From: an uncultured delta proteobacterium
GTDB lineage: Bacteria > Desulfobacterota > RBG-13-43-22
Direction of reading: 5' to 3'
Length of the DNA stretch: 64,000 nucleotides
Assembly (NCBI GenBank): GCA_963802945.1
Contig: CAWDKY010000014.1
Coordinates: 96,001 to 160,000, forward strand
Position 1 is the stretch's first letter. Each line of letters starts with the position of its first letter. Both the position numbers and the translations under genes were made by a program. Below are positions 2,960-58,871 of the stretch, piece after piece. The notes beneath the pieces were generated by a model, which saw only the letters and a list, made by a program, of their open reading frames with translations, ran no database searches and was not told the origin of the DNA.

Positions 2960-3036
<77 letters not shown>

Positions 3037-3048
3037 AAAAGAAGACGT

Positions 3049-3080
3049 AAGGGTTGGAGGTTTCCTCTAACCCTTTTTTT
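3049..3080 (+). terminator. Intrinsic terminator after the tRNA
   Basis: AAGGGTTGGAGG-TTT-CCTCTAACCCTT followed by a T-tract. Confidence 0.8.
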
Positions 3081-3256: not shown

Positions 3257-3285
3257 TTGACATGAAAGCCTGTTTTCCTTAAATT
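3257..3285 (+). promoter_or_regulatory. sigma70 promoter of the glp-hdr operon
   Basis: TTGACA-N17-TAAATT. Confidence 0.65.
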
Positions 3286-3323
3286 AATTTTAACAAAAGG
3301 AAATTTTATCCATCAATGATTGG

Positions 3324-3402
3324 GGCACGAGAATAAAGAGTAAGCCCTGATAGATGATGAACATTTAGGAAAAGTGTTCATTGTCCGTCAGGGCTTTTTT
3401 GT
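3324..3402 (+). promoter_or_regulatory. 5' leader with intrinsic terminator, putative GlpP-responsive antiterminator site
   Basis: Purine-rich GAGAATAAAGAG, then a ~25-bp hairpin with several G:U pairs (AAGCCCTGA...TCAGGGCTT) and a T-tract, between promoter and glpA; glpP lies in the same cluster. Confidence 0.75.
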
Positions 3403-3503
3403 TCCAAGATTTTTCAGGACTGCTTGAAAGGGAAGTATTTGAAAACGATTTTTTTATTATCGGAAGCGGGAGAGGATAATGGCCTTGTCCAAGGGGGTGC
3501 CTT

Positions 3504-5051
3504 TTGAAGACCCAGGTACTCATTATCGGGGGAGGGGCTACCGGCACCGGACTGGTGCGGGACCTGGCTCTTCGCGGTGTTCAATGCCTTCTGGTTGAAA
3601 AAAAGGACATCAATGCCGGGGCTTCGGGAGCGAATCACGGTCTTTTGCACAGCGGGGGCCGATACGTCGCCTCCGATCCCACCGCCGCCCAAGAATGCCG
3701 AAATGAAGCTGACATAATCAGACGTGTCGCTCCTCAATGTATTGAAGATACGGGCGGTCTTTTCGTGGCTGTGGAAGGCGACGATGAGAAATTTATCGCC
3801 GATTTTCCCCGCATGTGCGAACGGTCCGGAATCCTCGCGGAAGCGGTTGATCTAAAGGAAGCCCGTATTCTGGAACCGGCCCTTTCGGAAAAGATCATCG
3901 CCGCCTACAAGGTAAGAGATGGGGCCATTGATCCTTTCAAGCTTTCCCTGGATAATCTTTCCCAAGCCCAAGAACTGGGATCCATCCTTTTACGTCATAC
4001 CATGGTGTCAGCCTTCGACATTCGGGAATCAAAAATCAAATCGGTCCATTTACAACAGATCCAGACTGGAGAGGAGATGGTGGTTGAAGCCGATATGGTG
4101 GTCAATGCCGCCGGTGCCTGGGCAGGGCTGGTGGCCGGTTTGGCTGGAATTTCCATCCCAGTCCTCTATTCCAAAGGAAGCCTGGTCATTACCCACAATC
4201 GGATTGCCCGGAGGGTGATCAACCGTTTGCGTGCTGCCTCCAATGCCGATATCTTGGTGCCGGGAGGCACGGTTTCAATTTTGGGAACCACTTCAATCAG
4301 AATAGAAAATCCGGACGAAGTCTATCCAACAGTTGAAGAGATCGATTTGATGATTGAAGATGCCAAGGCCATGATCCCGGCTTTGGAGACGACAAGATAC
4401 ATCCGTGCCTACAGCGGCGTACGGCCGCTTATCGGATCGCTAACCAGCGGAGATGACCGCAGTGTGAGTCGCGGCTTTGCCCTCATGGATCACGGGGCTC
4501 AGGGTATAGATAATTTTATCACCATAACTGGCGGAAAGCTGACCACCTATCGCCTGATGGCCGAAAAAGCGGCCGATTTGGTTTGTCATCGTCTGGGGAT
4601 TTCAAGATCATGTCTAACCGGAACCGAACCGTTGCCAGCGTCACAGCTCGCTCAATGGACCGAACCTGCTTTGGCTCCTAAGACCTGGCTGAAAGGTCAT
4701 AGTCCGGAGGATCTTCTCCATTGTGAATGTGAGATGGTTCCCAAAAGTACGGTCGATGCCATCATTGCATCCCTTCATCAGCAGGGAGGGAGGGTTGATC
4801 TTCAGGGCATCGGCTTGCGCAGCCGGATTGGCAAAGGTCCCTGTCAGGGCGCTTTTTGCGGACCGCGACTTAGTGCTTATCTCTTTGAAAAAGGAGAGCT
4901 TGATCCCGGTCAATGCTTAGACGGTCTTCGGGATTTCGTCCGCAGCCGTTGGAAAGGCCTCTATCCTATCCTCTGGGGAGAGCAGCTTCAACAGTCTGAA
5001 TTATTGGAGGCGATGCATTGCGGAATACTGGGTTTGGAATTGGAGGAGTGA
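3504..5051 (+). CDS. glpA: Anaerobic glycerol-3-phosphate dehydrogenase subunit A
   Basis: IIGGGATG FAD motif, GASGANHGLLHSGGRY, ITGGKLTTYRLMAE, C-terminal BFD-like CECE...GPCQGAFC. Confidence 0.93.
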   Translation: MKTQVLIIGGGATGTGLVRDLALRGVQCLLVEKKDINAGASGANHGLLHSGGRYVASDPTAAQECRNEADIIRRVAPQCIEDTGGLFVAVEGDDEKFIADFPRMCERSGILAEAVDLKEARILEPALSEKIIAAYKVRDGAIDPFKLSLDNLSQAQELGSILLRHTMVSAFDIRESKIKSVHLQQIQTGEEMVVEADMVVNAAGAWAGLVAGLAGISIPVLYSKGSLVITHNRIARRVINRLRAASNADILVPGGTVSILGTTSIRIENPDEVYPTVEEIDLMIEDAKAMIPALETTRYIRAYSGVRPLIGSLTSGDDRSVSRGFALMDHGAQGIDNFITITGGKLTTYRLMAEKAADLVCHRLGISRSCLTGTEPLPASQLAQWTEPALAPKTWLKGHSPEDLLHCECEMVPKSTVDAIIASLHQQGGRVDLQGIGLRSRIGKGPCQGAFCGPRLSAYLFEKGELDPGQCLDGLRDFVRSRWKGLYPILWGEQLQQSELLEAMHCGILGLELEE

Positions 5052-5165
5052 AAAAGGATTCACCTAAACGGGATACTGGACTCCAATTTGAGTAATTACT
5101 TTAGGAAAGATTGTATATCAAAATTGATGGGTAAACTAGCCTGCCATAAACGCAGGTGTATTATC

Positions 5166-5227
5166 GTCATGCCGGACTTGATCCGGCATCCAGTTTTTTT
5201 CTGGCTTACGGCTTTCGCCGGAATGAC
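5166..5227. repeat. GTCA...TGAC palindromic REP-like element (family copy 1)
   Basis: GTCATGCCGG...CCAG / CTGG...TTCGCCGGAATGAC; related copies at 7204, 14777 and 50881. Confidence 0.75.
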
Positions 5228-5283
5228 TATCTCGAAATACACCACAAGGAAAATGCCTTTAGAAGTTTAAAACTCAAATTAAG

Positions 5284-6578
5284 ATGCATGATCTGGAACC
5301 TATCAAAGTCGATTTGACTGTCATCGGGGCCGGAATGGCCGGTATGGCGGCCACGCTGTTTGCAGTCAACCGTGGTCTATCCGTGGCCCAGGTGGGTCGT
5401 ACCAGTGAGATCGGATTTGCCAGTGGTTTATTCGATCTGCTCGGTGTACATCCCATGAGCGAAGGGAATCAGTGGGATGATCCCTGGGCAGGTATCGAGG
5501 CCCTGGTAAAGGATATCCCTGAACATCCTTATGCCCGATTGAGTAAAGAAGAAATCCGGTCCGCCCTTAGCGAACTGCTAGATTTTTTAGAAGGGGCAGG
5601 TCTTCCCTATTCCAGAAATCCCGATCGTAATGTCAGGATCTTTTCTTCCCTCGGGACGATCAAAACGACCTATGGTACACCCAGGACCATGTGGGCAGGG
5701 GTGCAGGCCCTGGAGCAGAAACGCCCCTGTCTGATCGTGGATTTCAAAGGGCTTAAAGGGTTCAGTGCCGAATTGATTGTACATAACCTACGCTCCCGGT
5801 GGCCGGGTTTACGCGCCGTCAGGATTACTTTCCCTGGAACGGAACGCAGAGAGGAAGTATTACCGGAACACTATGGCCAATGCCCTGATCCTGGCAGGCA
5901 ATCGGAAAAAGCTTGCCCAGCGGATACGACCGGAAATCAAAGATGCACAGAGCATAGGTCTGCCGGCCGTTTTGGGATTGTATCAATCCCCCAAAACGGC
6001 TTCTGATCTATCGGAATTGATCGGCGTTCCGGTCTTTGAAATATCCTACCATGCCGCCTTCTATTCCAGGGCTGCGCCTAAAAGAAGCCTTTGAACGGGG
6101 ACTGCGAGAAAGAAGGCCCTATTATTTTTCTCAAAAGAGAGTGGTTGAAACACGACTGGAGCCGGGCGGGGAATTTAAAATCGGTATTGAAAGTCCAACC
6201 GGAAAGCAGGTGATTTTATCCCAGGGGATCATTCTGGCCTCAGGGCGATTTATCGGCGGGGGATTGAGGGCCGATCGAAAGCATGTCCGGGAGACGATTT
6301 TTGATTTACCTGTTTCCCAGCCCGAGAGCAGAAATAAATGGCACAGGGAAGACTTTCTTGACTTGCGAGGCCATTCGATCAATCTGGCCGGGGTGGAGAT
6401 TGATGATTATTTCCGTCCGCTGAATCATCATGGCCAATCAGCTTTCAATACCCTGTTTGCAGCGGGTTCGATTCTTGCCCATCAGGATTGGAAACGGACG
6501 AAATGCGGTTCCGGCCTGGCCGTGGCCACGGCCTTCGGGGCAGTAAAGGCTTTTATCAATATCACTCGTAATGGATGA
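5284..6578 (+). CDS. glpB: Anaerobic glycerol-3-phosphate dehydrogenase subunit B, split by two +1 frameshifts (~5871, ~6044)
   Basis: VIGAGMAG, LGTIKTT, LPAVLG, PVFEI|PTMPPSIPGLRL, LASGRFIGGGL, CGSGLAVAT spread over three frames. Confidence 0.88.
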
Positions 6579-7158
6579 ATGGTATTTAAAGATGACGGAT
6601 TCCATAACACCGGGATATGAATTTACCGAAGAAGTCGAAAAAGGCGGATCCTTTAAGGTTGAGGTCTGCTTCCAATGCCGGAAATGCACCACCGGCTGTC
6701 CGGTGGCCTTTGCCATGGATCTGTTTCCCGACGAAGTCATCCGAATGGTGATTTTAGGTCAACGGGAAAAGGTGCTGAGTTGCCAAACGATCTGGATATG
6801 CTCAGCCTGTGAAACCTGTACTACCCGTTGTCCCAACGAGGTAAAAATCGCCGAACTCATGGATCATCTCAAAGAAATGGCTATAAGGGAGAACGTTCCC
6901 TGTCCAAAGCCGCAGGTTTTAAGTTTTCATAAAATTTTTTTAAAAAATATAGAAAAGCGGGGACGGATATTTGAATCAACGCTTCTGCCGGCCTATCTGC
7001 TTCGAAGCGGTCAGCTCCTTAAAAGATGGAAAGACGGCACTTGGCTGGCAGAACTCGGATTAGGATGGAAGTTGTTTTCCAAAGGGAGAATGCCCCTGTG
7101 GCCGCATAAAAATAAAGGGAAAAAGGAAATCAGCAAGATTTTATTCAGGGGTAAATGA
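6571..7158 (+). CDS. hdrC: Heterodisulfide reductase subunit C-like 2x[4Fe-4S] protein
   Basis: CFQCRKCTTGCP and IWICSACETCTTRCP motifs; adjacent to hdrB (alternative start 6592). Confidence 0.85.
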   Translation: MDEWYLKMTDSITPGYEFTEEVEKGGSFKVEVCFQCRKCTTGCPVAFAMDLFPDEVIRMVILGQREKVLSCQTIWICSACETCTTRCPNEVKIAELMDHLKEMAIRENVPCPKPQVLSFHKIFLKNIEKRGRIFESTLLPAYLLRSGQLLKRWKDGTWLAELGLGWKLFSKGRMPLWPHKNKGKKEISKILFRGK

Positions 7159-7203
7159 AAAAGCAGTCATCTAAGTCCATGTTGACAAATAGTTTCCAAG
7201 ATT

Positions 7204-7335
7204 GTCACCCCGGCGGACCCCGGATCAAGTCCGGGGCAGGCGCCGGGGTCCAGAAATCAAACGGGAGAACTTTGAATAAAATTAACGGCAGGAACCGTAC
7301 TCAGTCACCTGGATTCCGGCGTTCGCCGGAATGAC
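7204..7335. repeat. GTCA...TGAC palindromic REP-like element (copy 2)
   Basis: GTCACCCCGGCG...GGGTCCAG ... CTGGATTCCGGCGTTCGCCGGAATGAC. Confidence 0.75.
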
Positions 7336-7394
7336 GTTAATTTGGTTTTGGCGAAATTTAGAAATTCATAAAATAATTGTATACGAAAAGAAAT

Positions 7395-8252
7395 ATGAAA
7401 TTTTCTTATTATCCAGGGTGTTCGCTTAAAGGGACGGCCAAAGATTATGCCGAGTCGATCCTGGGCATCTGCCAGTCGCTTCAGATCGAACTGGAAGAAA
7501 TTCCGGATTGGAACTGTTGCGGGGCAACCGCGGCCCACAGTATTGATCATCAGGCGGGTATTGCTCTGGCTGCCAGGACCTTGAGTCTGGCGGCTAAAAT
7601 GCCCCATTCCCAAATGCTGGTCCCTTGCCCTTTGTGTTTCAACCGATTGAAAACGGCCTCTTATGCCTTACAGCAGGATCAAAATAATCGCTATAAAATA
7701 AAATTACCGGATTCGGTTCCAAAAATTTTGGATCTGGCAAATTTTTTTGCTACCGAAACGATGTTGGAAATCACGGCCCAAAAAATTCAAAAGCCCCTTA
7801 GGGGGTTAAAAGTGGTCTGCTATTACGGATGCATGGCCAACCGGCCGCCGAAGATCACGGAAGCTAAAGATTTTGAAAATCCTCAAGCTCTGGATCGTAT
7901 CGTGGCCAATTTGGGTGGCACGGTAATCCCCTGGCCTTATAAAACAGATTGTTGCGGTGCCTCGCAGGCCTTTTCGTTGGAGGATATTGAAAACAAACTG
8001 GTGAAAAAACTTTTAGATATGGCCCGGCGTGTCGGAGCACAGGGCATCGTGGTTTCCTGCCAGATGTGTCAGGCCAATCTGGATATGCATGATAAAAGGG
8101 CCGGAGGTGGGTCGAAAAATTCATCGTCTTTGCCGGTGTATTATTTTACCGAGTTGATTGGACTGGCCTTGGGAGTGAAGGGAGTTCAGAAATCGTTGTC
8201 GCGTCATATCGTTGATCCCATACCCCTTCTAAAAGGTCTGGGACTTTTTTGA
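7395..8252 (+). CDS. hdrB: Heterodisulfide reductase subunit B-like (two CCG domains)
   Basis: YYPGCSL, DWNCCGA, PCPLC, YYGC, TDCCGAS, SCQMCQANLD. Confidence 0.88.
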   Translation: MKFSYYPGCSLKGTAKDYAESILGICQSLQIELEEIPDWNCCGATAAHSIDHQAGIALAARTLSLAAKMPHSQMLVPCPLCFNRLKTASYALQQDQNNRYKIKLPDSVPKILDLANFFATETMLEITAQKIQKPLRGLKVVCYYGCMANRPPKITEAKDFENPQALDRIVANLGGTVIPWPYKTDCCGASQAFSLEDIENKLVKKLLDMARRVGAQGIVVSCQMCQANLDMHDKRAGGGSKNSSSLPVYYFTELIGLALGVKGVQKSLSRHIVDPIPLLKGLGLF

Positions 8253-8305
8253 GTGTAGTTGTAATTTCATTTTTTTAAAAAGAACTTTCAGGGACTATTA
8301 ATAAT

Positions 8306-8468
8306 AAGCACGAAATTCGAAGTCCGAAATTCGAAACAAATTCAAATGACCAAAATTAACAACCTCTTTCCCTCTGAGACGAATATTGTCAAAGGAGTGG
8401 ATGTTTCTGTCCATTTGATATTTATTATTTAGATTTGTTTCGTATTTCGATATTAGGATTTCGGATTT
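8306..8468. repeat. Inverted heptameric-repeat element (CGAAATT-type arms)
   Basis: AAGCACGAAATTCGAAGTCCGAAATTCGAAACAAAT ... ATTTGTTTCGTATTTCGATATTAGGATTTCGGATTT. Confidence 0.7.
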
Positions 8469-8524
8469 AATAAAACTAATGAACTCATTCGGGGCGGATA
8501 TCCAGTAATTGACAAGGGACCCAA

Positions 8525-11500
8525 TTGAATAACCAAATCCAAAAAATCGGATCCATTACCGTCATCGGCGGCGGCATCGCCGGGATCCAGGCGGCTTTGG
8601 ACGCAGCCAATTCGGGATTTAAGGTTTATCTGTTGGAAGAAAATTCCACCGTTGGCGGCGCCATGGCCCAACTGGATAAGACCTTTCCCACCAACGACTG
8701 TTCTTCCTGCATGATGGGGCCCAAAATGGTAGAACTCGCCAATCATCCCAACATTGAAATCCTCACCCGCACTTCGCTCGAGGGTATCGATGGCAGGCCC
8801 GGAAATTTCACTATTAAGATCAAGCGTGAACCGAGATTTATCAGGGAAGACCGCTGTACCGCCTGCGGTGAATGCGCCCGGGTTTGCCCGGTGGAATTGC
8901 CGGCCGACTTCAACTTGGGTTTGAATTCCCGCAAAGCCGTCTATCAGCATTTCCCCCAGGCCGTTCCAGCGGCCTTTGCCATTGACAAGACCGGCGTATC
9001 GCCCTGTAAGCAGGCTTGCCCGGCAGGAATAAGCGTACAGGGCTATATCTCTCTAATCGCCCAGGGGCGTTATCAAGAGGCCCTGCAACTGATCAAACAA
9101 AATAACCCTTTCCCAGCCATATGCGGTCGTGTCTGCACGCACCCCTGTGAAGAGGCTTGTAACCGAAGGCAGTTAGACGAGCCGGTAGCCACCGAATATT
9201 TGCATCGCTTTGTGGCCGATCTTGATCTGAAGGCCGAATCACCCTGCCTTCCGGCCAAAAAAGAATCCAAGAACAAGAAGGTGGCGGTGGTCGGTGCCGG
9301 TCCCGGCGGTCTTAGCGCCGCTTATTATCTGGCTGTTGAAGGGTATGAGGTCTGTGTCTTTGAAGCTATGGCGGAACCCGGCGGCTGGATGCGTTACGGT
9401 ATTCCCGAGTATCGTCTGCCCCGGAATATTTTACAGGCCGAGATCGAGATCATCAGAAAATTGGGAGTGCAAATACGTACCGGAGTATCTCTGGGCCAGG
9501 ACTTTTCCATCGGCAGTCTGCGGCAGGATGGCTATGCAGCCGTTTTCCTCGCCGTTGGGACTCAAAATGGCAGACTGTTGAATGTTCCGGGGGAGAATTT
9601 AAAGAATGTTTACTCCGGCGGTGATTTCCTCAAGGCGATCAACAGCGGGCAGGGCCTGACTCTTGGGACCAGGGTGGCGGTGATCGGCGGTGGTAATGTG
9701 GCCATGGATGCGGCCCGCACTGCCCTGCGCCTTGGAGCCCAAGAAGTCCATGTGCTCTATCGGCGCAGCCGCAAAGAGATGCCGGCCAACGAGGAAGAAA
9801 TTGCGGAGGCGCAGGAGGAAGGGATTCAGTTCCATTTTTTAACGGCTCCGGTTGAATTATTGCCGAACGATGTTGGGCGGGTGGGACAAATTCGCTGCCA
9901 GCGAATGAAGCTGGGAGAACCTGATTCCAGCGGCCGGCCGAGGCCGGTGCCGATTCCCGATTCCGAATATGAGATGCCCATTGACTGTGTGATCAGCGCC
10001 ATCGATTTTACTACCGATCTCAGTTGCCTTGATCAGGACCATGAAAACAACAAGCCGGCCGTTACCCGCCGAGGAACATTGGTCGCAGATCCGGTTACTA
10101 TGGCTACATCTATTCCTGGAATCTTTGCCGGAGGGGATGCGGTTACTGGTCCTGCCACCGTAGTTGAAGCCGTCCGGGCCGGCCATGAAGCCGCAATTTC
10201 TATAGGCCGGTATTTATGTGGTGAGGATTTGGCGGCAGGCCGGGGAAGAGATTGCCGGCCAGCCGAAATTCCCGCCGGGCCTCAGGCGTCGCTTCAAAGG
10301 ACCAAGATGCCGCAACTGGCTCCTGATGTGCGCAAACGTTCTTTTGAGGAAGTGCAAACAGGGTTTAACGAAGCTCAGGCCCGGGAAGAAGCCAAGCGAT
10401 GCCTGCAGTGCGGTTTATGCAGCGAATGCTATCGCTGTCTGGAGGTCTGTACGGCTCAGGCGGTGGACCACGATATGGAGCGATGTTATGAAGAATTACA
10501 AACCGGGGCGGTTATTGTAAGCGCCGGCTTTCAGCCTTTTGACGCCCGGCTCAAGCCTGAATACGGTTACGGTTTGTGGCCCAATGTTATGACCACTCTG
10601 GAATACGAACGGATGCTTTCGGCGGCCGGCCCTTTTTCCGGCCGCATCCAGCGCCTTTCGGATGGGAAAAAGGTGCACCGAATGGCCTGGATTCTATGTG
10701 TCGGATCGCGGGATGTTGGCATCGATCGAAATTATTGTTCCTCGGTCTGCTGCATGTCGGCCACCAAGCAGGCCATGATCACCAAAGAACATGATCCTCA
10801 AATCGAGACCGCGATTTTTTTTATCGACCTGCGGGCTCAGGGCAAAGGCTTCGACCGTTTCTATGAACGCGCCGAATCGGAATCCGGCGTGCGATATGTG
10901 CGTTCTATGGTTTCACGAGTGGTCCCGATACCGGAAACCGACCGGCTGCAAGTCACTTACAGCAACGATGAGCACCGGATACAAATGGAAGAGTTCGATC
11001 TGGTGGTCCTGTCCGTAGGTTTATGCGCCCATCCATCGGCGATCAACCTGGCTGAAAGGATAGGTCTTGAGCTTAATCCCTATGGATATTGCGCCACCCA
11101 TCCGTTGGACTCAACGGCGACATCACGGCCCGGTATCTTTGTGGCCGGGGTTTTTCAAGGGCCCAAGGATATTCCGGAGACGGTCCAACAGGGCAGCAGT
11201 GCAGCGGGAGGCGCCACCGCCTTGCTTTCCGATGTGCGCGGTTCGCGTATCAGCCTGCCGGTGCAGACACCGGAGCGGGATGTGACCGGCGAGCTGCCGC
11301 GCATCGGGGTTTTTGTTTGTCACTGCGGAACCAACATCGCCGGTGTAGTGGACGTGGACCGTATCGTCGATTATGTCAAGTCTTTGCCCAATGTGATTTA
11401 TGCCGCCAACGCCATGTTTGCCTGCTCGACCGACCAGCAGCGCGAAATCAAAAGAGTCATTGATGAGCATCGCCTCAATCGTCTGGTGGTGGCCTCCTGT

Positions 11501-12955
11501 ACGCCACGCACGCATGAACCGCTGTTTCGCAACACGTTACGTGAGGCCGGGCTCAACCCGTATCTTTTTGAACTAGCTAATATCCGCGAACATGACTCCT
11601 GGGTGCATCGAAACGAACCGGAAGCGGCGACCCAAAAGGCCCTCGACCTGGTGCGCATGTCTGTTGCCCGGGCGCGGCTTTTGCAACCTTTAGCGGAAAC
11701 GCATTATCCGGTTGTTCAAAGGGCTTTGGTGATCGGAGGGGGACTGGCCGGACTAACGGCAGCTTTGACCATTGCCGAGCAAGGGTATGAGTCTGTGCTG
11801 ATAGAAAAAACACCTGAATTAGGAGGGAATGCCCGCACCCTATATTATACGGAAGACGGTGCGGATCCGGCCCAATATGTTCAGGACTTGATTCATAAAA
11901 TCAAAACAGAGCCGTTGATTACCGTCTACACCAAGGCCGAAGTGGTTGAAACCCAGGGCGTTTGTGGCCATTTGACCACCACGATTTTGAAGGAGGATGA
12001 AGCGAAAGAGATCGTTCATGGCGTGACCATTGTTGCTGTAGGCGGCCAGGAATACCAGCCCGAGGAATATCTTTATGGAAAAGACCACCGGGTGATGACT
12101 CGAAAGGAGTTTGAATCTCTGTTGGCTTTGAATCCCGAGGAGGCTAAACACTATTTGCGGGTAGTGATGATTCAGTGTGTGGGCTCCAGGGAACCCGATC
12201 ATCTCTATTGCAGCCGGGTATGTTGTACCGGGGCAGTGAAAAACAGTTTGAAGCTCAAATCGTTAAATCCGGATGCCCAGGTTTCGATTCTGTATAGAGA
12301 TATGCGTACTTTCGGATTTAGAGAAAGTTATTACTACCAGGCACGGCTCCAAGGGGTGCGCTTTTTCCCGTATGTGAGGGACCAGAAACCGGAAGTCACC
12401 TTGGAGAATAACGAGCTGCAGGTAAAGGTATTTGATCAACAACTTCGCCTTCCGGTGCAGTTGAAAGCGGACCTGCTGGTTTTGAATACGGCCATCCGAC
12501 CCAACCCCAAGGAGAAAGAACTGGCAGGAATCCTGCGTCTTCCCCTGGATCAGGATGGGTTTTTTATGGAGGCCCATCCGAAACTGAGGCCTCTGGATTT
12601 TATCAAACCGGGTTATTATTTGTGTGGTCTGGCCCAAGGGCCCAAGTTCGCTGCTGAGTCCATCACCCAGGCCCGGGGGGCCGCTGCCAGGGCTATGACC
12701 ATCCTTTCCAAAGAAATGATGACCGCCGAGGGGATGGTTGCCCAGGTGGATACGGATCTCTGCCGGGGTTGCTGCGAATGTGAGAAGGCCTGTTTGTTTG
12801 AGGCCATCCGTGTGGAACAAGACGAGGATGGGCGGAAGGCGGCTGTGGTCAACAAAAGCCTATGCACGGGGTGCGGGGCCTGTAATGTGGCTTGCCCTAC
12901 AGGTGCAGCATCTCCGGCCCATTTTCAGGATGACCAGATTGATGGGAATGATTAG
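8525..12955 (+). CDS. hdrA: Large HdrA-like flavo-Fe-S protein (HdrL type) with inserted GltD-like NAD(P)H-binding module; probable frameshift in the last codons
   Basis: GGGIAGIQAAL, LDKTFPTNDC, PCKQACPAG/NPFPAICGRVC, VIGGGNVAMD, two CVGSR..CSxVCC repeats, GVFVCHCG, ANIRE, C-terminal ferredoxin. Confidence 0.9.
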   Translation: MNNQIQKIGSITVIGGGIAGIQAALDAANSGFKVYLLEENSTVGGAMAQLDKTFPTNDCSSCMMGPKMVELANHPNIEILTRTSLEGIDGRPGNFTIKIKREPRFIREDRCTACGECARVCPVELPADFNLGLNSRKAVYQHFPQAVPAAFAIDKTGVSPCKQACPAGISVQGYISLIAQGRYQEALQLIKQNNPFPAICGRVCTHPCEEACNRRQLDEPVATEYLHRFVADLDLKAESPCLPAKKESKNKKVAVVGAGPGGLSAAYYLAVEGYEVCVFEAMAEPGGWMRYGIPEYRLPRNILQAEIEIIRKLGVQIRTGVSLGQDFSIGSLRQDGYAAVFLAVGTQNGRLLNVPGENLKNVYSGGDFLKAINSGQGLTLGTRVAVIGGGNVAMDAARTALRLGAQEVHVLYRRSRKEMPANEEEIAEAQEEGIQFHFLTAPVELLPNDVGRVGQIRCQRMKLGEPDSSGRPRPVPIPDSEYEMPIDCVISAIDFTTDLSCLDQDHENNKPAVTRRGTLVADPVTMATSIPGIFAGGDAVTGPATVVEAVRAGHEAAISIGRYLCGEDLAAGRGRDCRPAEIPAGPQASLQRTKMPQLAPDVRKRSFEEVQTGFNEAQAREEAKRCLQCGLCSECYRCLEVCTAQAVDHDMERCYEELQTGAVIVSAGFQPFDARLKPEYGYGLWPNVMTTLEYERMLSAAGPFSGRIQRLSDGKKVHRMAWILCVGSRDVGIDRNYCSSVCCMSATKQAMITKEHDPQIETAIFFIDLRAQGKGFDRFYERAESESGVRYVRSMVSRVVPIPETDRLQVTYSNDEHRIQMEEFDLVVLSVGLCAHPSAINLAERIGLELNPYGYCATHPLDSTATSRPGIFVAGVFQGPKDIPETVQQGSSAAGGATALLSDVRGSRISLPVQTPERDVTGELPRIGVFVCHCGTNIAGVVDVDRIVDYVKSLPNVIYAANAMFACSTDQQREIKRVIDEHRLNRLVVASCTPRTHEPLFRNTLREAGLNPYLFELANIREHDSWVHRNEPEAATQKALDLVRMSVARARLLQPLAETHYPVVQRALVIGGGLAGLTAALTIAEQGYESVLIEKTPELGGNARTLYYTEDGADPAQYVQDLIHKIKTEPLITVYTKAEVVETQGVCGHLTTTILKEDEAKEIVHGVTIVAVGGQEYQPEEYLYGKDHRVMTRKEFESLLALNPEEAKHYLRVVMIQCVGSREPDHLYCSRVCCTGAVKNSLKLKSLNPDAQVSILYRDMRTFGFRESYYYQARLQGVRFFPYVRDQKPEVTLENNELQVKVFDQQLRLPVQLKADLLVLNTAIRPNPKEKELAGILRLPLDQDGFFMEAHPKLRPLDFIKPGYYLCGLAQGPKFAAESITQARGAAARAMTILSKEMMTAEGMVAQVDTDLCRGCCECEKACLFEAIRVEQDEDGRKAAVVNKSLCTGCGACNVACPTGAASPAHFQDDQIDGND

Positions 12956-13139
12956 GGCGTTTCGTGAAAATAGGGTTTCAAAGATTCAGAGGTTTCGAGG
13001 ATTCAAGGTTATAATATCCGGTATACAGGTTCAGATCGGATTTCCGTGAATAGGACTTTAGAGCTCGGAACGTTAGACCTTGGCCTTGAACCTGCTAGAA
13101 TATGAGTCCTTGGAGTAAAATTGAATTTTGGAGCAATGC

Positions 13140-13668
13140 ATGTCTTTAACTGAACCACCTGAAATCATCGCCTTCGTTTGTCACTGGTGTGCCTATGCCG
13201 GGGCCGATCTGGCGGGGATTTCCCGTATCCAGTATCCGCCGAATGTACGTCTGGTGCGGGTCATGTGCACGGGACGAATTCATTCAGGCTTTCTCCTGCA
13301 TGCCTTTTTCGAAGGTGCGCAAGGCGTTTTGGTTTCCGGGTGTCACCTCGGCGACTGCCATTACCTGGAAGGTAATGTGAAATGCCAAAAGGTGATCGAA
13401 GAAACCTGGGAGTATCTGCGGCTGTTTAGGGATTGACGAAGGGCGGCTCAGGATCAAATGGATTTCCGCCTCGGAAGGGGCCGAGTTTGCCAAGGAGATC
13501 CAAGAGTTTGTTTCATTTCTCCAAGGGCTGGGAGAAAAACCTCTCGCCGATAAAAGAAAATGGGATCTTAAAGGACTGCCATCAGCGGATAATATCGGTC
13601 TTGATAAAGGGCCACCGCTGTTAAGAGATGAGCAGATTGCCAACCTGCATGGAATGCAGCAGTTGTAG
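13140..13668 (+). CDS. mvhD: MvhD-like [2Fe-2S] subunit; frameshift at ~13425, probably fused in frame to the downstream Fe-S/CCG gene
   Basis: FVCHWCAYAGAD, RVMCTGR, GCHLGDCHY; the +1 frame continues LGIDEGRLRIKWISASEGAEF and stays open to 13668. Confidence 0.85.
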
Positions 13669-14734
13669 CGGCACCTGCCCGGTCAGCCGTGAAAATCCTC
13701 TATTTTCCCCGAAACAGATCATTAATCGGACGGCCATGGGACTTGAGGCCGATATCCTTCAAAGCCGCGAGGTCTGGGCCTGTCTGGGGTGTGCTCAATG
13801 CAATACACGCTGTCCGGCCCTGATCGATATCTCGGAATTCAACCGCTCCTTTCGATACCGAGCACGGGAAGCCGGGAATCCGCCAATGGAAAGCCATCAC
13901 GGCATTCATCAAACCATTGCCCGATTGCAGAGGCATCCCCTTTCGCAAAAACGTACGGACTGGGCGGAAAAGACCGGGAATTTCAAATCAACCGGGGACT
14001 ATTTTTATTTTGTAGGCTGTTTGCCTTATTTTGATATCACCTTTCGCTATCTAAATATATCACCGCTGGAAAGTGCCCGAAGCGTACTGACTCTATTGAA
14101 TCGAATCGGAATCGAACCGGTCATCAGCAATGACGAAAGGTGCTGCGGGCACGATGCCCTTTGGTGCGGCGAAGAGGACACTTTCCTGGAGTTGGCCTTA
14201 TGGAACCTTGAGATCCTAAAGGCCTCGGGAGCCAAAACCGTCCTATTCAGTTGTCCGGAAGGCTATTCGACCTTTAAATATTATTATCCCAAATATGTTG
14301 GAGAACTGCCTTTCGAGGTTGTCCATCTGGCCGAATTTTTTGCCCGTGAAATACCCAAGTCAGGGTTGAAGCTGAAACCGTTTTCCGATGGTGCGGTCAC
14401 CTATCAGGACCCTTGCCGGTTGGGACGCTGGGCCGGGATTTATGAACCGCCCAGGGAATTAATAAAATTGGTTTCAGGAACGAAACTCATTGAAATGGAG
14501 AGGACCAGAGAGAATGCCCTGTGCTGCGGAACCAGCGCCTGGATGGAATGTTCCAGTTGTTCCAAGGTCATTCAGACCGAACGACTCATGGAAGCTCAGC
14601 AAACCGGTGCGAAGAAACTGATTACCGCTTGTCCTAAATGCCGGATTCATCTGACCTGTGCTAAACTGGGAGAAAATATTGATATCGGCGTGAAAGACAT
14701 TTATACTTTTTTGGCAGAACACCTAGAAGATTAG
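13628..14734 (+). CDS. HdrD/GlpC-like 2x[4Fe-4S] plus two-CCG-domain protein
   Basis: CMECSSCSGTCP, WACLGCAQCNTRCP, FVGC, ERCCG, TYQDPCRLGR, LCCG, TACPKC. Confidence 0.85.
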   Translation: MSRLPTCMECSSCSGTCPVSRENPLFSPKQIINRTAMGLEADILQSREVWACLGCAQCNTRCPALIDISEFNRSFRYRAREAGNPPMESHHGIHQTIARLQRHPLSQKRTDWAEKTGNFKSTGDYFYFVGCLPYFDITFRYLNISPLESARSVLTLLNRIGIEPVISNDERCCGHDALWCGEEDTFLELALWNLEILKASGAKTVLFSCPEGYSTFKYYYPKYVGELPFEVVHLAEFFAREIPKSGLKLKPFSDGAVTYQDPCRLGRWAGIYEPPRELIKLVSGTKLIEMERTRENALCCGTSAWMECSSCSKVIQTERLMEAQQTGAKKLITACPKCRIHLTCAKLGENIDIGVKDIYTFLAEHLED

Positions 14735-14776
14735 TAAAAACAAGTTCGGAGTTAAGAGTTCGGATAAAAAATCCTT

Positions 14777-14803
14777 CTGGACCCCGGCTTTCGCCGGGGT
14801 GAC
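14777..14803. repeat. Half copy of the GTCA...TGAC REP-like element
   Basis: CTGGACCCCGGCTTTCGCCGGGGTGAC. Confidence 0.65.
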
Positions 14804-14870
14804 GGTTTAGCGGCTTATGGCCCCATTATTTTTTACTCCGAACTAAATACTCTTTTTTGGGGAGGTAGAC

Positions 14871-16352
14871 ATGGCCAAATACATCGGTGCAGTCGATCTG
14901 GGTACGACCAGTAATCGTTTCATCGTTTTCGATCACACCGGCCAAATCGTCGGGCTGTCGCAAAAAGAACATCAACAGATCTTTCCCAAGCCGGGCTGGG
15001 TGGAACATGATCCCCTGGAGATCTGGAACAACACCCAGGAGGTCATCCGCGAAGCCTTGGCCAAAACCAATGTTACCGGAGATGATATTGCGGCCATCGG
15101 TGTGACCAACCAGCGCGAGACCACGGTTGTCTGGGAGAAAGCTACCGGCAAACCTATTTACAATGCCATCGTTTGGCAGGATACACGCACGGATGTTATC
15201 TGCAACGAACTGGCCAAGCATGGAGGTCAGAATCGATGGCGCGGGAAAACCGGCCTTCCTCTGACCACCTATTTTTCAGGCCCTAAAATAAAATGGATTC
15301 TGGACAACGTCCCAGGTGCCCAAGGGAAGGCGGAGAACGGCGAACTGCTTTTCGGAAATATCGATACTTGGTTCATCTGGAATCTGACCGGCGTGCACGT
15401 CACCGACGTAACCAATGCTTCGCGGACGCTCCTGATGAATCTGAACCATCTTGACTGGGATGATGAAATACTGCAGTTGCTGAATATCCCTCGGGCCATG
15501 CTGCCGAAGATTTGTTCATCATCGGAGGTCTATGGCCAGGCCAAGGGTATCCTCAAGGGTGTGCCGGTGGCTGGTGATCTGGGCGACCAGCAAGCGGCCC
15601 TGTTCGGACAGACCTGTTTCAATCCCGGCGAGGCCAAGAACACTTACGGAACCGGATGTTTTATGCTTCTGAATATGGGCGAACGTCCGGTCCCCAGTAC
15701 CAGCGGACTGCTGACCACCGTCGGTTATAAGATCGGCCATCAGAAGGCCGTTTATGCCCTGGAAGGTTCGATCGCTATCGCCGGCGCCCTGGTGCAATGG
15801 TTGCGCGACAACCTGGGCCTGGTTTCCAAATCAGCCGAGGTGGAGGCTTTGGCCCGCACGGTCGAAGACAACGGCGGTATTTATTTCGTACCGGCCTTTT
15901 CCGGGCTGTTTGCCCCTTACTGGAGGTCTGATGCCCGGGGAGTTATCGTCGGTCTGACGCGTTTCATCAATAAAGGTCATCTGGCACGGTCCGTGCTGGA
16001 AGCCACTGCCTTTCAGACCCGTGAGGTTCTTGATGCTATGGAAAAAGACTCGGGTGTACGGCTGAAGGCCCTCAAGGTGGACGGCGGGATGGTTTTCAAC
16101 GAACTGCTGATGCAATTCCAGGCGGATCTATTGGATGTGCCGGTTATCCGCCCAAAGGTCGCTGAAACCACAGCCCTGGGTGCCGCCTACGCCGCCGGGC
16201 TGGCCGTTGGTTTCTGGAAAAATCTCGATGAACTGCGACTCAACTGGGGAAAGGACAAAGAGTGGAAACCCCAAATGGACGTATCCAAACGTGACCAACT
16301 TTACGCCGGCTGGAAAAAAGCCGTCTCACGGACTTTCGACTGGATAGGATAA
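14871..16352 (+). CDS. glpK: Glycerol kinase
   Basis: [53 protein letters not shown]. Confidence 0.97.
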
Positions 16353-16517
16353 AAGCATCCGCTTGACTTTTTGCCTGTCTATCAGATATCTTTTAATTAA
16401 AGTTCGGATGTCGTTGGTTACCCTCGATCCGGGAATCGCCTCTGTGGCAGATAAAGGTAATAGGCAGCCGGAAGGCGGGGGAGTTTTTCTGAAGGGTGTG
16501 CCGAAAGGAGACTGACA

Positions 16518-17102
16518 TTGGATTTTCTGTCAATACTGCGGAACAAACCGGTCATTGCGGCCTTCAGGGATATCGAAAGCCTTCATTTTCAAAGTTTGAA
16601 TCATTCTGATGTTCTTTTTATCTTGGGGGGGACCATTTTTGAACTGCCCCGCATCGTAGAACAGGCAAAAAGGTATCAGAAACTGATTTTCGTCGATATC
16701 GATCTAATAAAGGGGATCGGAAAAGATGCCCCGGGAATCAGGTTTTTGGCTCAGCAGAGTCAGGTCAATGGAATCATCACCACTCGCAGCAATCTTATCA
16801 AAAGCGGGCAGAAAGAAGGTCTGATCTCCATTCAGAGGGTATTCGTTCTGGATTCGGAGTCTCTGAACGGAGGACTCGGGGTCATTGAAAAATCAGGTCC
16901 CGACGCCGTGGAAATCCTTCCCGGTCTGATTCTCCCCAAGGTCATGGAAAAAATAAGGCTAATTACCTCCATTCCGGTCATTGCCGGAGGGTTGATCACC
17001 CAGAAAGAAGAGATAGATGAAATTCTTGCCTCCGGGGCGATCGGGATATCTACCTCCTCATCCCACCTGTTTGATTTTAAGAGAAAGGGGAAGGATTCTT
17101 AG
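16518..17102 (+). CDS. glpP: Glycerol-3-phosphate-responsive antiterminator
   Basis: PVIAA, VDIDLIKGI, GIITTR, IQRVFVLDS, PDAVEILPG, PVIAGGLI, GAIGISTS; directly after glpK. Confidence 0.92.
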   Translation: MDFLSILRNKPVIAAFRDIESLHFQSLNHSDVLFILGGTIFELPRIVEQAKRYQKLIFVDIDLIKGIGKDAPGIRFLAQQSQVNGIITTRSNLIKSGQKEGLISIQRVFVLDSESLNGGLGVIEKSGPDAVEILPGLILPKVMEKIRLITSIPVIAGGLITQKEEIDEILASGAIGISTSSSHLFDFKRKGKDS

Positions 17103-19858: not shown

Positions 19859-20906
19859 TCATTCTTCATACAAGGCCCTTTGCTCAGGGTTCATGTTTGA
19901 CAGATGCTTTTTAGCCTCTTCGGGCGAAACGGCCATTAAAGTACCGTCCGGCTCCTGAATGACTACCCCACTGTTGATGATCATTTTATAACGCTCCTGA
20001 CGCACCTGTTTGTCGGGGTGGCAGATAAACTGGCAGTGACCGCAGGTGAACTCAAGGAGGTTTCCGGGCATCAAGGCATGGTAAAGCCCATAATCCGCTT
20101 TTTTTCTGTTGCGATAAGCGGGGACCGCCTTTATCAAGGCGCCCAGAAATTCCTCATCCTTTTCAGGGATCGGGAAACGTCCCGGTGACCAGGTGGACCA
20201 CTTCCCGGATTGATGCAAACCGGTAAACCCTCCACAAACGTATTCGCAACGGTTGTAAGAACGACGCTTGGAATAATTGAAATTTCTATTCCCCAAGGTG
20301 ACCGTGGTTTCCTCATCCGAAGACATCAAACCGGATGCACAGGCGGACATACAAAGACGGCAGCTATCGCAGTAATTATCCTCAGGCGGTAAAGGATCGG
20401 TGGGGATCAGTTCCGCTTCGGTGACCACAGAGGCCAGAATGATGGCCGCCCCGACCTTATTCATAATGACATTACCGGACAGACCAAAGTAACCGATCCC
20501 TGACCTTACGGCCAGATAGCGGTGGGAAATAGGGGGTTTTTCATCATAAGGGCCGTTTGGAGTGTCTTTTCGATAAACGGTATTGGCCACTAACGGCACG
20601 GATTTATAGCCCTTCATATTCAGAAACTCCGACAACTCCAAAGCAAGGCCGCTGGCCATGTTATTGACCCGGCGGTTGTCAATGTTGGCCGAAGCCATAT
20701 CCTCTTTTTTCAAAAAACGTTCGATAGCTCTTTGATCTAACGGCACGGCAAAGACGACGGCCGACCTGGCCTCCGGAAGGACATAAGTCAGGTCTGTGGA
20801 GGGCGGCCCACCTTCAAGGGTTTCTGTGGTTGTAATCCCGACGGCAATAGCGCCCGAATTCTTAACTAAATTTTTCACATATCTGCGTTAATTGCTCCTT
20901 ATCCAT
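19859..20906 (-). CDS. QueG/reductive-dehalogenase-like Fe-S protein; frameshift near the N-terminus
   Basis: ISHRYLAVRSGIGYFGLSG, CDSCRLCMSAC, RCEYVC, TCGHCQFIC; ATG at 20906 with GGAGG is out of frame by 1 nt. Confidence 0.72.
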
Positions 20907-20938
20907 TTTTTCCTCCTTACCGTATAAATTTTATTCTC

Positions 20939-21387
20939 TCATAAAAGCAACCCAAGCCTGCGGAGATCTCTCAGATTTCCGCAGGGGGCACAGTCTGCGG
21001 CACTACATCCCTCGAAATTTTGGTTTTTTCAAGTAAGCTAAGCCAGCAATCTTTTCTCCGCGCGGAGGTTAAGAGGTCTATTTCGCTTTCAATCCTGGAA
21101 AGGGAGTCAGAAAGCGGCCTTCTCAATTTTCGAGTTAGCCTTCGATCCTTGGTATTCTCAGATTTAGAAAGTAAAAGGATCCTACGGATATCTTTAATGG
21201 AGTAACCGATACGTTTGAGAACCTGGGCAGTTTGGATTACTAAAACTACCTCTTCCGCATATAATTTACGACCTCCAGGTGTAATGGAGATTGGAGTTAA
21301 AAGTCCTTCCGCCTCATAATGTCGAATTGTCCGAGGCGTGCAACCTGTGTGGCGGCAAATCTTGCCAATCAATATTCCATCGGCCAT
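20939..21387 (-). CDS. MerR-family transcriptional regulator with frameshifted Cys-rich C-terminus
   Basis: IGKICRHTGCTPRTIRHYEAEGLL HTH; alternate frame ends EGCSAADCAPCGNLRDLRRLGLLL* at 20939. Confidence 0.8.
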
Positions 21388-58667: not shown

Positions 58668-58680
58668 GATTTTACCTTAA

Positions 58681-58818
58681 CAGGTTGCTGAAAAAGACCC
58701 ATCAATCCCGCTACCGGCGGGATTGCCATCACCCCTCGTCTTTGCGGCGTACTTGTTTGTACGCCTCATTCCTCGGGATTTCGGGACGTCTTGTATCTAG
58801 ACCTTTTTGAGCAACCTG
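58681..58818. mobile_element. MITE-like element (copy 2)
   Basis: CAGGTTGCTGAAAAAG ... CTTTTTGAGCAACCTG; internal extra palindrome ATCCCGCTACCGGCGGGAT. Confidence 0.8.
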
Positions 58819-58871
58819 TAAAAAAGAGTTTTTCCGCATCCTGTTAATTTGTGCTTGGAGTTGTATAGATG

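Follow-up and report, generated by a model that had tools for sequence, protein, structure and literature searches.

HdrA-type complexes have so far been linked to H2, formate, F420H2, NADH/Flx, methylene-tetrahydrofolate and benzoyl-CoA as electron donors or acceptors. MetFV-HdrABC-MvhD of Moorella thermoacetica combines a two-FAD HdrA, HdrBC and MvhD with a flavoprotein whose substrate couple lies at -200 mV, and the available text of a review gives its proposed reaction as 2 NADH + methylene-H4F + Fd(ox) -> 2 NAD+ + methyl-H4F + Fd(red) (PMC5861303; H4F, tetrahydrofolate; Fd, ferredoxin). Glycerol 3-phosphate (G3P) cannot reduce NAD+ directly, because the couple of G3P and dihydroxyacetone phosphate (DHAP) lies at -190 mV and that of NAD+ at -320 mV. 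How non-respiring anaerobes oxidize glycerol was unclear before the description in 2026 of FngABC of Pyrococcus furiosus, a new bifurcating family that oxidizes G3P with co-oxidation of reduced ferredoxin and formation of NAD(P)H (Schut, Poole, Adams 2026, PMC13689815). The available text of that paper takes Hdr to be a bifurcating family unrelated to FngABC and does not name it as a neighbor of GlpA. Here we analyzed a 64,000-nt stretch of DNA (hereafter, the window; contig CAWDKY010000014.1, positions 96,001 to 160,000) from an uncultured member of the Thermodesulfobacteriota, in which genes for anaerobic G3P dehydrogenase (glpA and glpB), glycerol kinase (glpK) and the antiterminator GlpP enclose a set of hdr and mvhD genes.

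The cluster (3504-17102, all genes co-oriented on the plus strand; Table 1) is best explained as a glycerol/G3P catabolic operon made up of a leader terminator, glpA, glpB, hdrC-like and hdrB-like genes, the gene for a large HdrL, mvhD joined to an hdrD-like gene (mvhD~hdrD), glpK and glpP. We read it as one operon because a single conserved leader terminator precedes glpA and because glpK and glpP lie behind the hdr genes. All of the cofactor motifs are present, and the glp and hdr genes have been kept together in several lineages. The best explanation, which we hold tentatively, is that the operon encodes a soluble, MetFV-HdrABC-MvhD-like complex in which electrons from G3P and from reduced ferredoxin reduce NAD(P)+. 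In its favor, the genome that holds the window (G000; 100% complete, 6.72% contamination) also carries hdrL-mvhD-metV-metF on contig C17, that is, the same design for a substrate couple near -200 mV.

In the proposed mechanism, GlpA(B) would take the place of MetFV in one soluble complex. GlpA would oxidize G3P (about -190 mV), and electrons would pass from its [2Fe-2S] cluster to the Fe-S/CCG subunits and on to the HdrA flavin; HdrC/HdrB would be the likeliest entry because they hold the glpC position and have the domain content of GlpC. At the flavin they would be joined with the low-potential electrons of reduced ferredoxin so that NAD(P)+ (about -320 mV) is reduced, which amounts to flavin-based confurcation. 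The overall reaction would be G3P + Fd(red) + 2 NAD(P)+ -> DHAP + Fd(ox) + 2 NAD(P)H, the reaction of FngABC with machinery unrelated to it. Instead of reducing a disulfide, the CCG clusters would serve as a docking place for a flavoprotein, and expression would probably be switched on by G3P through antitermination in the leader. We infer complex formation, the electron path, the dependence on ferredoxin, the direction of flow and the preference for NAD or NADP from sequence.

GlpA is placed in its family by its equivalog score (Table 1), by the FAD motif GGGATG at residue 9 and by a C-terminal CxC...CxxxxC motif whose cysteines (Cys407/409/447/452) are invariant in 34 sequences. We take this C-terminal motif to resemble a BFD-type [2Fe-2S] site. 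The HdrL protein matched methanogen HdrA (5odc_A) with 630.3 bits in four stretches of permuted order, and because the HdrA matches are permuted and doubled, we read the 1476-residue protein as a fused pair of TrxR-like flavin modules. The first module spans residues 1-~900 and the second residues 1066-~1400, with the HdrA N-terminal domain between them (923-1060) and a ferredoxin domain at the C-terminus. Nucleotide-binding motifs were located at residues 15 (GGGIAG), 257 (GAGPGG), 388 (GGGNVA) and 1071 (GGGLAG), together with four CxxCxxCxxxC motifs and two CVGSR..YCS..CC...K motifs; both the window and the 12 glp-linked loci examined keep the latter in each flavin module. Lys409 of HdrA, which presumably contacts the flavin, corresponds in the alignment to K748. 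HdrA equivalog scores were under the cut-offs (NF040770, 963.4 vs 1100; NF041778, 698.2 vs 1400), with all domains present in permuted and doubled form. HdrL has been defined as a fusion of HdrA with an NADH-binding domain of the glutamate synthase type, followed by mvhD (Strittmatter et al. 2009, PMC2702500, available text), and the protein of the window has this arrangement: a single chain holds HdrA domains and a GltD-type module, and mvhD lies directly 3' of its gene.

Within module 1, an NfnB/GltD-like module for NAD(P)H (residues ~157-631) interrupts the inserted ferredoxin domain and separates its two cluster motifs at residues 111 and 632. An earlier note on this DNA had named the large HdrA as HdrL, a type that it said carries an NAD(P)H-binding insert, and this is borne out by matches of residues 159-567 to NfnB/GltD/DPD-type NAD(P)H flavoproteins (4ylf_B, 346.8 bits; NfnI 5jca_L, 321 bits). 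The insert is variable: besides the window, three of the 14 glp-linked loci (L059, L079 and L091) have it, and the other 11 lack it. A bolder version of the proposal, which we regard as rather doubtful, is that of a G3P:NAD(P)+ oxidoreductase on an HdrA platform, in which HdrA-type and NfnB-type flavin sites share one chain of 1476 residues, CCG subunits dock GlpA(B) and the whole forms a second, evolutionarily independent answer of strict anaerobes, beside FngABC, to the uphill transfer of G3P electrons to pyridine nucleotides; in such an enzyme, the two modules could each bifurcate.

The second composite protein of the operon is MvhD~HdrD. In the nearest relative (L001), the fusion of ~531 residues comprises an MvhD domain that a ~70-residue linker joins to two ferredoxin-type motifs (2x[4Fe-4S]) and two CCG motifs; its residues 6-135 matched MvhD of PDB entry 7bkb_F with 158.3 bits, and in the window the FlpD domain (PF02662) was recognized. 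The gene is one plain open frame in L001/L059 and a single open reading frame (ORF) with an in-frame TGA, giving the motif G-U-H-x-G-D-C-H, in L060, L061, L062, L077 and L081. The TGA reads as selenocysteine, and cysteine stands there in the window and L001; the TGA form is also common to most other mvhD loci. Gene callers therefore start the fusion protein 3' of the TGA, so that its selenocysteine forms are truncated in annotation. Of the top 120 protein clusters, about 35 combine FlpD and CCG domains, most with lengths of ~447-452 residues instead of 531, and the sources annotate them simply as "heterodisulfide reductase subunit D" or "Fe-S oxidoreductase". The fusion was limited to loci with co-oriented glpAB (all six such loci in which both parts are readable); outside them, mvhD and hdrD are separate, adjacent genes. 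The HdrD-like part scored below the cut-offs of the GlpC profiles (TIGR03379, 45.2 vs 279.9; NF008369, 72.8 vs 278).

Both the fusion and the insert bear on an alternative that we consider unlikely, namely G3P-driven bifurcation. G3P would act as the mid-potential donor, its electrons entering by the HdrD-like part with its fused MvhD, and the HdrA flavin would split the pair; one electron, at low potential, would exit to NAD(P)+ by way of the inserted ferredoxin domain and then the NfnB/GltD insert, and the high-potential one would take HdrC/HdrB to an acceptor at more than about -60 mV (ETF, the electron-transferring flavoprotein; quinone via a separate membrane module; or a disulfide). These two domains would hold the position of the hydrogenase adaptor, and the fusion of MvhD to the HdrD-like part solely in loci with co-oriented glpAB is consistent with this path, as are the MenG/UbiE and the stand-alone NarI/Fe-S + CCG module encoded elsewhere in the genome. 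The insert also sits within the domain through which low-potential electrons leave methanogen Hdr and BamE, according to the available text of a preprint (10.64898/2026.04.10.717634), and this scheme has been proposed for E. coli GlpABC (Schut et al. 2026, PMC13689815, available text), which would here be realized with Hdr parts. However, the insert is missing from most of the glp-linked loci, and with ferredoxin as the acceptor, the second acceptor would have to lie above about +40 mV by our own arithmetic from standard potentials. The operon encodes no high-potential partner, and neither an intact DsrC nor dsrA was found in the genome.

The HdrC-like and HdrB-like proteins sit at the glpC position of glpABC operons and jointly have the domain make-up of GlpC, raising the possibility that the arrangement which the earlier note described as Hdr "instead of GlpC" may partly be a GlpC that has been split and wired to HdrA. 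The HdrC-like protein scored below the cut-offs for HdrC (TIGR03290, 62.4 vs 160) and GlpC (TIGR03379, 26.5 vs 279.9; NF008369, 42.4 vs 278). Both CCG motifs of the HdrB-like protein have the full cysteine set; its NCBIfam scores were below cut-off, with 164.5 bits for the SdhE type (NF042965) and 116.3 vs 345.15 for HdrB (TIGR03288). A tblastn search showed a single set of HdrB/HdrC of this type in the genome. For hdrB, ATG 7395 is most likely the start rather than TTG 7377, and hdrC likely starts at ATG 6592 because relatives align from residue 8.

These two proteins are central to a further alternative, which we judge distinctly unlikely: GlpA, GlpB, HdrC and HdrB would form a GlpABC with a split GlpC that delivers electrons to quinone, and HdrL with MvhD~HdrD would be a separate NAD(P)H/ferredoxin module that is merely co-located or co-regulated. 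Such a division is suggested by the glpC position and combined domain make-up of HdrC and HdrB, by the SdhE type as the best match of the HdrB-like protein together with the probable synthesis of quinone, and by four loci (L003, L004, L029, L030) in which genes for an Fe-S protein and, separately, for a CCG protein with 26-32% identity to HdrB of the window come after glpAB. A quinone-reducing complex is harder to reconcile with the cluster itself, in which no protein matched a membrane-protein Pfam family, and a separate function is harder to reconcile with the gene order: hdrA/hdrL-mvhD follows HdrC/HdrB of this type in nearly all of the 80 loci described below, as in HdrABC operons, and glpK and glpP lie 3' of the hdr genes under one conserved leader. 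A further point against it is the presence of a single HdrB/HdrC set of this type in the genome.

The rest of the genome was searched as well. No protein of G000 exceeded the cut-off for canonical GlpC (best score among all proteins, 72.6 vs 279.9 bits), so that a standard glpC elsewhere, which the earlier note had named as refuting, was not found by profile, with the qualification that the genome does hold a NarI/Fe-S + CCG module of the kind found behind glpAB in other Desulfobacterota. This module (C17:312770-316657, equal to L163:5771-9658) encodes a NarI/Fe-S protein of 566 residues and two CCG proteins of 284 and 392 residues; the first two are 40% and 47% identical to the pair that adjoins glpAB in L029, and neither glp nor etf genes neighbor it. 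MenG/UbiE is present (237.5 vs 158.35 bits), and the organism probably makes quinone. No glycerol channel of the MIP family (glpF) was found in G000. At least five further HdrA-like genes were found; one of them, at C17:30645-37314, is for another HdrL (49% identity), and mvhD, metV and metF come after it in a cluster of the MetFV-Hdr type, with no hdrB or hdrC adjacent by tblastn.

The search also bears on the version given in the earlier note, in which a thiol/disulfide carrier such as DsrC exchanges electrons at the CCG sites. This is improbable: dsrA was not found in the complete genome, and the sole DsrC-family match was a fragment of 50 residues lacking the C-terminal cysteine arm. DsrC was rejected as the carrier on these grounds. 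A carrier of this kind would account for the complete or near-complete cysteine motifs of both CCG proteins, and the annotation assigns many further carriers of the same hdr module to the Desulfobacterales, an order of sulfate reducers. CCG clusters can also serve a flavoprotein partner, as shown by the CCG subunit BamD, which hands electrons to ETF; the available text of the same preprint (10.64898/2026.04.10.717634) describes BamE as a fused HdrA dimer with permuted domains. Given the contact between BamD and ETF, the complex need not be assumed to act on a disulfide, in keeping with a genome in which an intact DsrC was not found.

Lack of synteny between the hdr block and glp genes in relatives would, according to the earlier note, have spoken against the linkage; we found synteny. 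The order rpoA-rplQ-glpA-glpB-hdrC-hdrB-hdrA-mvhD~hdrD-glpK(-glpP) recurs in L001/L059, L015/L062 and L017/L060, in L061 without rpoA-rplQ and glpP, and in L002 up to hdrC, where the contig ends. The HdrB-like query returned 160 related stretches, from which 80 loci were kept. HdrB identity was at least 57% in 46 of these, comprising 14 loci with glpA and/or glpB, one (L086) with only glpK, divergent from hdrC, and 31 with none, many of which are on contigs of a few kb; no glp genes were found in the 34 loci with a more distant HdrB. In eight loci (L059-L062, L077, L081, L095, L079), glpA lies co-oriented 5' of hdrC, accompanied by glpB in all but L079 (L079:4206-14247), where ~500 nt of non-coding repeats separate glpA from hdrC-hdrB-hdrL-mvhD-hdrD. 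In six others (L063, L066, L074, L090, L091, L064), glpAB or glpB is convergent and 3' of hdrD, the glp content of L064 being a small plus-strand glpB fragment alone. The adjacency of glp and hdr genes thus survives rearrangement between two arrangements.

A GlpA tree of 37 sequences placed all 12 Hdr-linked GlpA in one group of 13 rows (SH-aLRT 93 in the quick tree; UFBoot 73 and SH-aLRT 94 in the careful tree), the sole extra member being the long-branched L003, and a single clade of the 12 was not rejected (AU p = 0.27). Since relatives share labels, the tree shows common descent of the linkage rather than independent origins. Likewise, all eight glp-linked rows of the HdrB tree fell inside one group of 25 rows. 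Among the 37 GlpA-related loci, four were Hdr-linked (L001, L015, L017 and, in part, L002), four (L003, L004, L029, L030) had glpAB succeeded by genes for a membrane protein of the NarI-like/Fe-S kind and for a separate CCG protein, and the others had different neighbors or were cut short.

Beyond the glp-linked loci, the hdr module was found near metV-metF and a NuoF/GltD fusion (L063, L074, L090), near a formate-dehydrogenase-like (fdhA-like) gene (L076, L083) and near a second hdrA-mvhD with NiFe hydrogenase genes (L097, L103). Because it lies near metFV, fdhA-like or NiFe-hydrogenase genes in several marine loci, it appears to be a coupling module of general use whose partners can be exchanged. 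A direct link to metFV in L063, L074 and L090 was rejected, as transporter or unrelated genes separate the upstream metV-metF and NuoF/GltD genes from hdrC, so that they do not form one operon. The exceptions to an hdrA/hdrL-mvhD behind HdrC/HdrB were L093, L110, L112 and L113, which lack it, and L107, L108 and L131, which have it on the opposite strand ~7 kb away.

Modeling of the complex, as the earlier note had suggested, was carried out for GlpA against HdrC+HdrB with custom alignments. The score was 0.42 (0.11, 0.42 and 0.51 in individual runs), compared with 0.00 for the best of three controls; partner pLDDT did not fall below 79, and at least 16% of contacts were shared between runs. 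Of 80 solved complexes, 58 attained the pass mark, as did 2 of 110 mismatched pairs, and those that passed with scores of 0.60 or less comprised 7 of the 80 solved complexes and both mismatches. The prediction thus lends weak support to a GlpA that sits on HdrC+HdrB.

The structures of two genes differ from what the earlier note described. It had taken glpB as one ORF and mvhD and the Fe-S/CCG gene as separate; in the window glpB reads in three frames, and in the nearest relatives mvhD and the CCG gene are one fused gene. An 8-nt overlap of glpB with hdrC exists if the start is ATG 6571 and is lost with ATG 6592, where relatives align. The gene order given in the note is real and conserved in relatives, with these corrections, and its assignment of the co-oriented plus-strand genes agrees with profile matches and motifs. 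A Pfam and NCBIfam profile search of the cluster proteins likewise detected no glpC, glpF, hydrogenase or Flx-type gene, as it had stated, and the soluble character it had proposed is in agreement with the lack of membrane-family matches noted above.

DNA alignment with L001/L015/L017 located single extra bases in glpB at 5872 and 6043, and comparison with relatives located two more in mvhD~hdrD at 13425 and 13644. GlpB matched NF003725 (cut-off 345) in two parts, with 275.7 bits for the N-terminal part (profile positions 6-200) and 237.9 bits for the C-terminal part (253-424); it is a single frame of 429-446 residues in L001/L015/L017. That both genes are true pseudogenes and the operon is decaying is very improbable. 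Such decay would explain why four frameshifts fall two each in two genes, with none in the upstream ribosomal cluster, the other cluster genes and ~8 kb further along the window (~27 kb compared directly). However, a genome-wide control drew on 274 kb from G005, the closest genome, where 206 of 271 long open frames match G000 at 80% identity or more; it revealed 17 frameshift-like junctions in G000 over 66,764 aligned residues (~200 kb), about one per 12 kb. Five genes had two junctions each, and one pair of junctions was the same site on both strands; examples lie at C15:306478-307965, C15:534237-536859 and C48:3640-5742. GlpB was present in 7 of the 14 genomes of the genus, including G000, and is a single frame in the other six, and dN/dS relative to L001 was 0.10-0.26 for all genes and pieces except the linker (0.50). 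Decay was dropped as the principal explanation after the genome-wide control and the dN/dS analysis; because of the junction rate, the intact GlpB of the six other genomes and the low dN/dS, the breaks are probably assembly errors, and pseudogene calls in this genome need read-level checks. Two side observations concern the same subject: glpA of L015/L062 (L062:6390-7930) matches in three frames, indicating that frameshift-prone assemblies extend beyond G000, and a 3-hydroxyacyl-CoA dehydrogenase ORF at 53568-54335 (minus strand) of the window stops at position 47 of 97 in its C-terminal domain, which may be an assembly frameshift.

Several of these observations weigh against a confurcating G3P complex. 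With the insert in only 3 of the 14 glp-linked loci and the window, NAD(P)H coupling through it is not general; moreover, it lies inside the inserted ferredoxin domain, by which low-potential electrons exit in methanogen Hdr and BamE, so that G3P-driven bifurcation fits at least as well as confurcation. The best NCBIfam match of the HdrB-like protein was the quinone-associated SdhE type, and MenG/UbiE together with the C17 NarI/Fe-S-CCG module would be compatible with a quinone route. The hdr module is not specific to glycerol, L079 carries no glpB anywhere on its 14-kb contig, glpB and mvhD~hdrD are frame-broken in this assembly, and the weakness of the complex prediction also counts here.

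The tentative mechanism includes control by G3P, and the leader of glpA offers a candidate site. A conserved box and a hairpin followed by a U-run lie behind a promoter-like site whose -35 hexamer is invariant in five related sequences (Table 1); the consensus fold of the leader in the same number of sequences has 28 pairs, two with compensatory changes, and box TTGGGGCACGAGA occurs once in G000. The leader appears to be a terminator and a candidate target of GlpP antitermination. Pairing of the terminator's 5' arm with the 5' G-run of the box would be possible and would give the usual attenuator layout, and G3P-responsive antitermination of the whole operon is plausible. Leader and GlpP occur together in G000, G005, G004 and G008; in two genomes, G014 (completeness 96%) and G017 (93%), the leader was found and GlpP was not detected, and G001 has GlpP but no leader. 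GlpP is rare (4 of 301 sampled genomes of the phylum) and, when used as a guide to further Hdr-linked loci, led to just two loci, with L162 (Syntrophaceae UBA4810) carrying glpP without hdr. A search for a known RNA element in the leader region gave only a tRNA and a sub-threshold Rfam match to MIR8008 (28.8 vs 66 bits), which we regard as spurious.

The spacers of the operon differ in length from those of L001, and three of them contain a repeat resembling repetitive extragenic palindromic (REP) elements, CTGG..CCGGC.TTCGCCGG..TGAC (5201-5227, 7309-7335, 14777-14803), with inverted partners at 5172-5191 and 7204-7234. The copy in the glpA-glpB spacer includes a terminator-like hairpin and T-run (5169-5189). 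The AT-rich hdrB-hdrL spacer holds an imperfect inverted repeat with 58-nt arms (8302-8359 and 8415-8472, 71% complementary).

Table 1. Features of the glp-hdr operon and its upstream boundary in the window, and stretches of HdrL that match HdrA (residue numbers)
Feature	Position	Strand	Evidence
Promoter-like site TTGACA, 17 nt, TAAATT	3257-3285	+	Consensus match
glpA leader: box TTGGGGCACGAGA 3320-3332, hairpin 3337-3400 (core 3344-3394), U-run to 3404	3320-3404	+	5-sequence alignment
glpA, FAD subunit of anaerobic G3P dehydrogenase	3504-5051	+	TIGR03377 569.1 bits vs cut-off 552.8; Pfam DAO
glpB, three frames	5284-5871, 5873-6043, 6045-6578	+	NF003725
hdrC-like, 2x[4Fe-4S]	6571/6592-7158	+	Fer4_8/Fer4_17; CxxCxxCxxxCP motifs at residues 33 and 77
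hdrB-like, two CCG (noncubane-cluster) motifs	7395-8252	+	PF02754 72.4 bits, 2 stretches; invariant Cys residues
HdrL, 1476 residues, fused two-module HdrA	8525-12955	+	PDB matches 5odc_A, 4ylf_B; motifs
HdrL stretch	residues 42-156		HdrA (5odc_A) 177-291
HdrL stretch	residues 632-850		HdrA (5odc_A) 293-512
HdrL stretch	residues 923-1101		HdrA (5odc_A) 2-180
HdrL stretch	residues 1332-1471		HdrA (5odc_A) 503-641
mvhD~hdrD-like fusion, two one-base breaks	13140-14734	+	PF02662 125.8 bits, PF02754
glpK, glycerol kinase	14871-16352	+	TIGR01311 759.1 bits vs cut-off 590.35
glpP, G3P-responsive antiterminator family	16518-17102	+	PF04309 195 bits
tRNA-Met	2960-3036	+	ARAGORN; Rfam tRNA 65.4 bits
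Terminator, 12-bp hairpin + T-run	3049-3075	+	Terminator scan

On the plus strand, the cluster is preceded by rpoA (1427-2443), rplQ, the tRNA-Met gene and a terminator, the last two of which (2960..3075) are the upstream boundary of the glp-hdr unit. A major facilitator superfamily (MFS) transporter gene and an M24 peptidase gene follow glpP; no counterpart of the MFS gene follows glpP in L060 and L062. The nearest public record of the organism is a metagenome-assembled genome from peat (L001/L059; GlpA identity, 91%). Elsewhere in the window, 19859-21387 (minus strand) encodes a 339-residue Fe-S protein with weak QueG/reductive-dehalogenase matches (40.5 and 32.5 bits, far under the cut-offs) that adjoins a MerR-family regulator, and an element of ~170 nt at about 58677-58850 has dozens of copies with 77-90% identity in G000 and other genomes of the genus.

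Full-text literature searches, with supplementary tables (e.g. Table S1 of PMC13689815) outside their scope, found no published description of glpAB linked to hdrA/hdrCB/mvhD; a bioRxiv paper on Asgard archaea mentions GlpABC and Hdr separately and was set aside as not relevant. The FngABC paper counts 27% of FngA/GlpA contexts as neither FngABC nor GlpABC, and these may include such cases. The linkage would represent an HdrA-type bifurcating complex with a new dehydrogenase partner. If it is functional, G3P would join the donors and acceptors served by HdrA-type complexes, and one thermodynamic problem would have been solved twice with unrelated parts. It would also provide a test case for the role of bacterial HdrB/HdrD CCG clusters in organisms without CoM-S-S-CoB (a heterodisulfide) or DsrC, and for the purpose of the NAD(P)H insert of HdrL.

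Among the known systems, FlxABCD-HdrABC of Desulfovibrio couples an HdrABC-type module to NAD(H), with DsrC as the proposed acceptor. The window differs from it in having no Flx genes, in placing NAD(P)H binding inside HdrA and in belonging to a genome in which an intact DsrC was not found. In Desulfobacterium autotrophicum, glpAB lies beside a gene for membrane-bound HdrF (Strittmatter et al. 2009, PMC2702500, available text). The glpAB-HdrF/NarI loci of Desulfobacteraceae (L003, L004, L029, L030) share with the window the order of glpA-glpB, an Fe-S protein gene and a CCG protein gene; unlike the window, they encode a NarI-like membrane domain and no hdrA/mvhD, and are presumably quinone-linked. 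BamDEF of class II benzoyl-CoA reductase, judged by its published description (as far as available) and not by sequence, resembles the window in its fused, permuted HdrA dimer with two TrxR modules, its MvhD-like adaptor (with selenocysteine in relatives) and its HdrD/HdrBC-like CCG subunit. However, both TrxR modules of the window keep ...CC...K, whereas the second flavin site of BamE has Gln in that description, and the window has separate HdrC/HdrB besides the HdrD-like part and neither BamB/C nor BamGHI.

FngABC and the proposed bifurcating GlpABC of E. coli share with the window a G3P-oxidizing subunit of the GlpA/FngA type and the same thermodynamic problem; the window lacks FngB/FngC and canonical GlpC and instead has HdrA-type coupling machinery. 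MetFV-HdrABC-MvhD, like the window, combines a two-flavin-module HdrA, HdrB, HdrC and MvhD with a flavoprotein partner near -200 mV; its pyridine nucleotide is NADH, and a ferredoxin-type third partner has been proposed. The window departs from it in having GlpA(B) as the partner, MvhD fused to an extra HdrD-like part and an NfnB/GltD insert in HdrA. Its physiological direction would be substrate oxidation.

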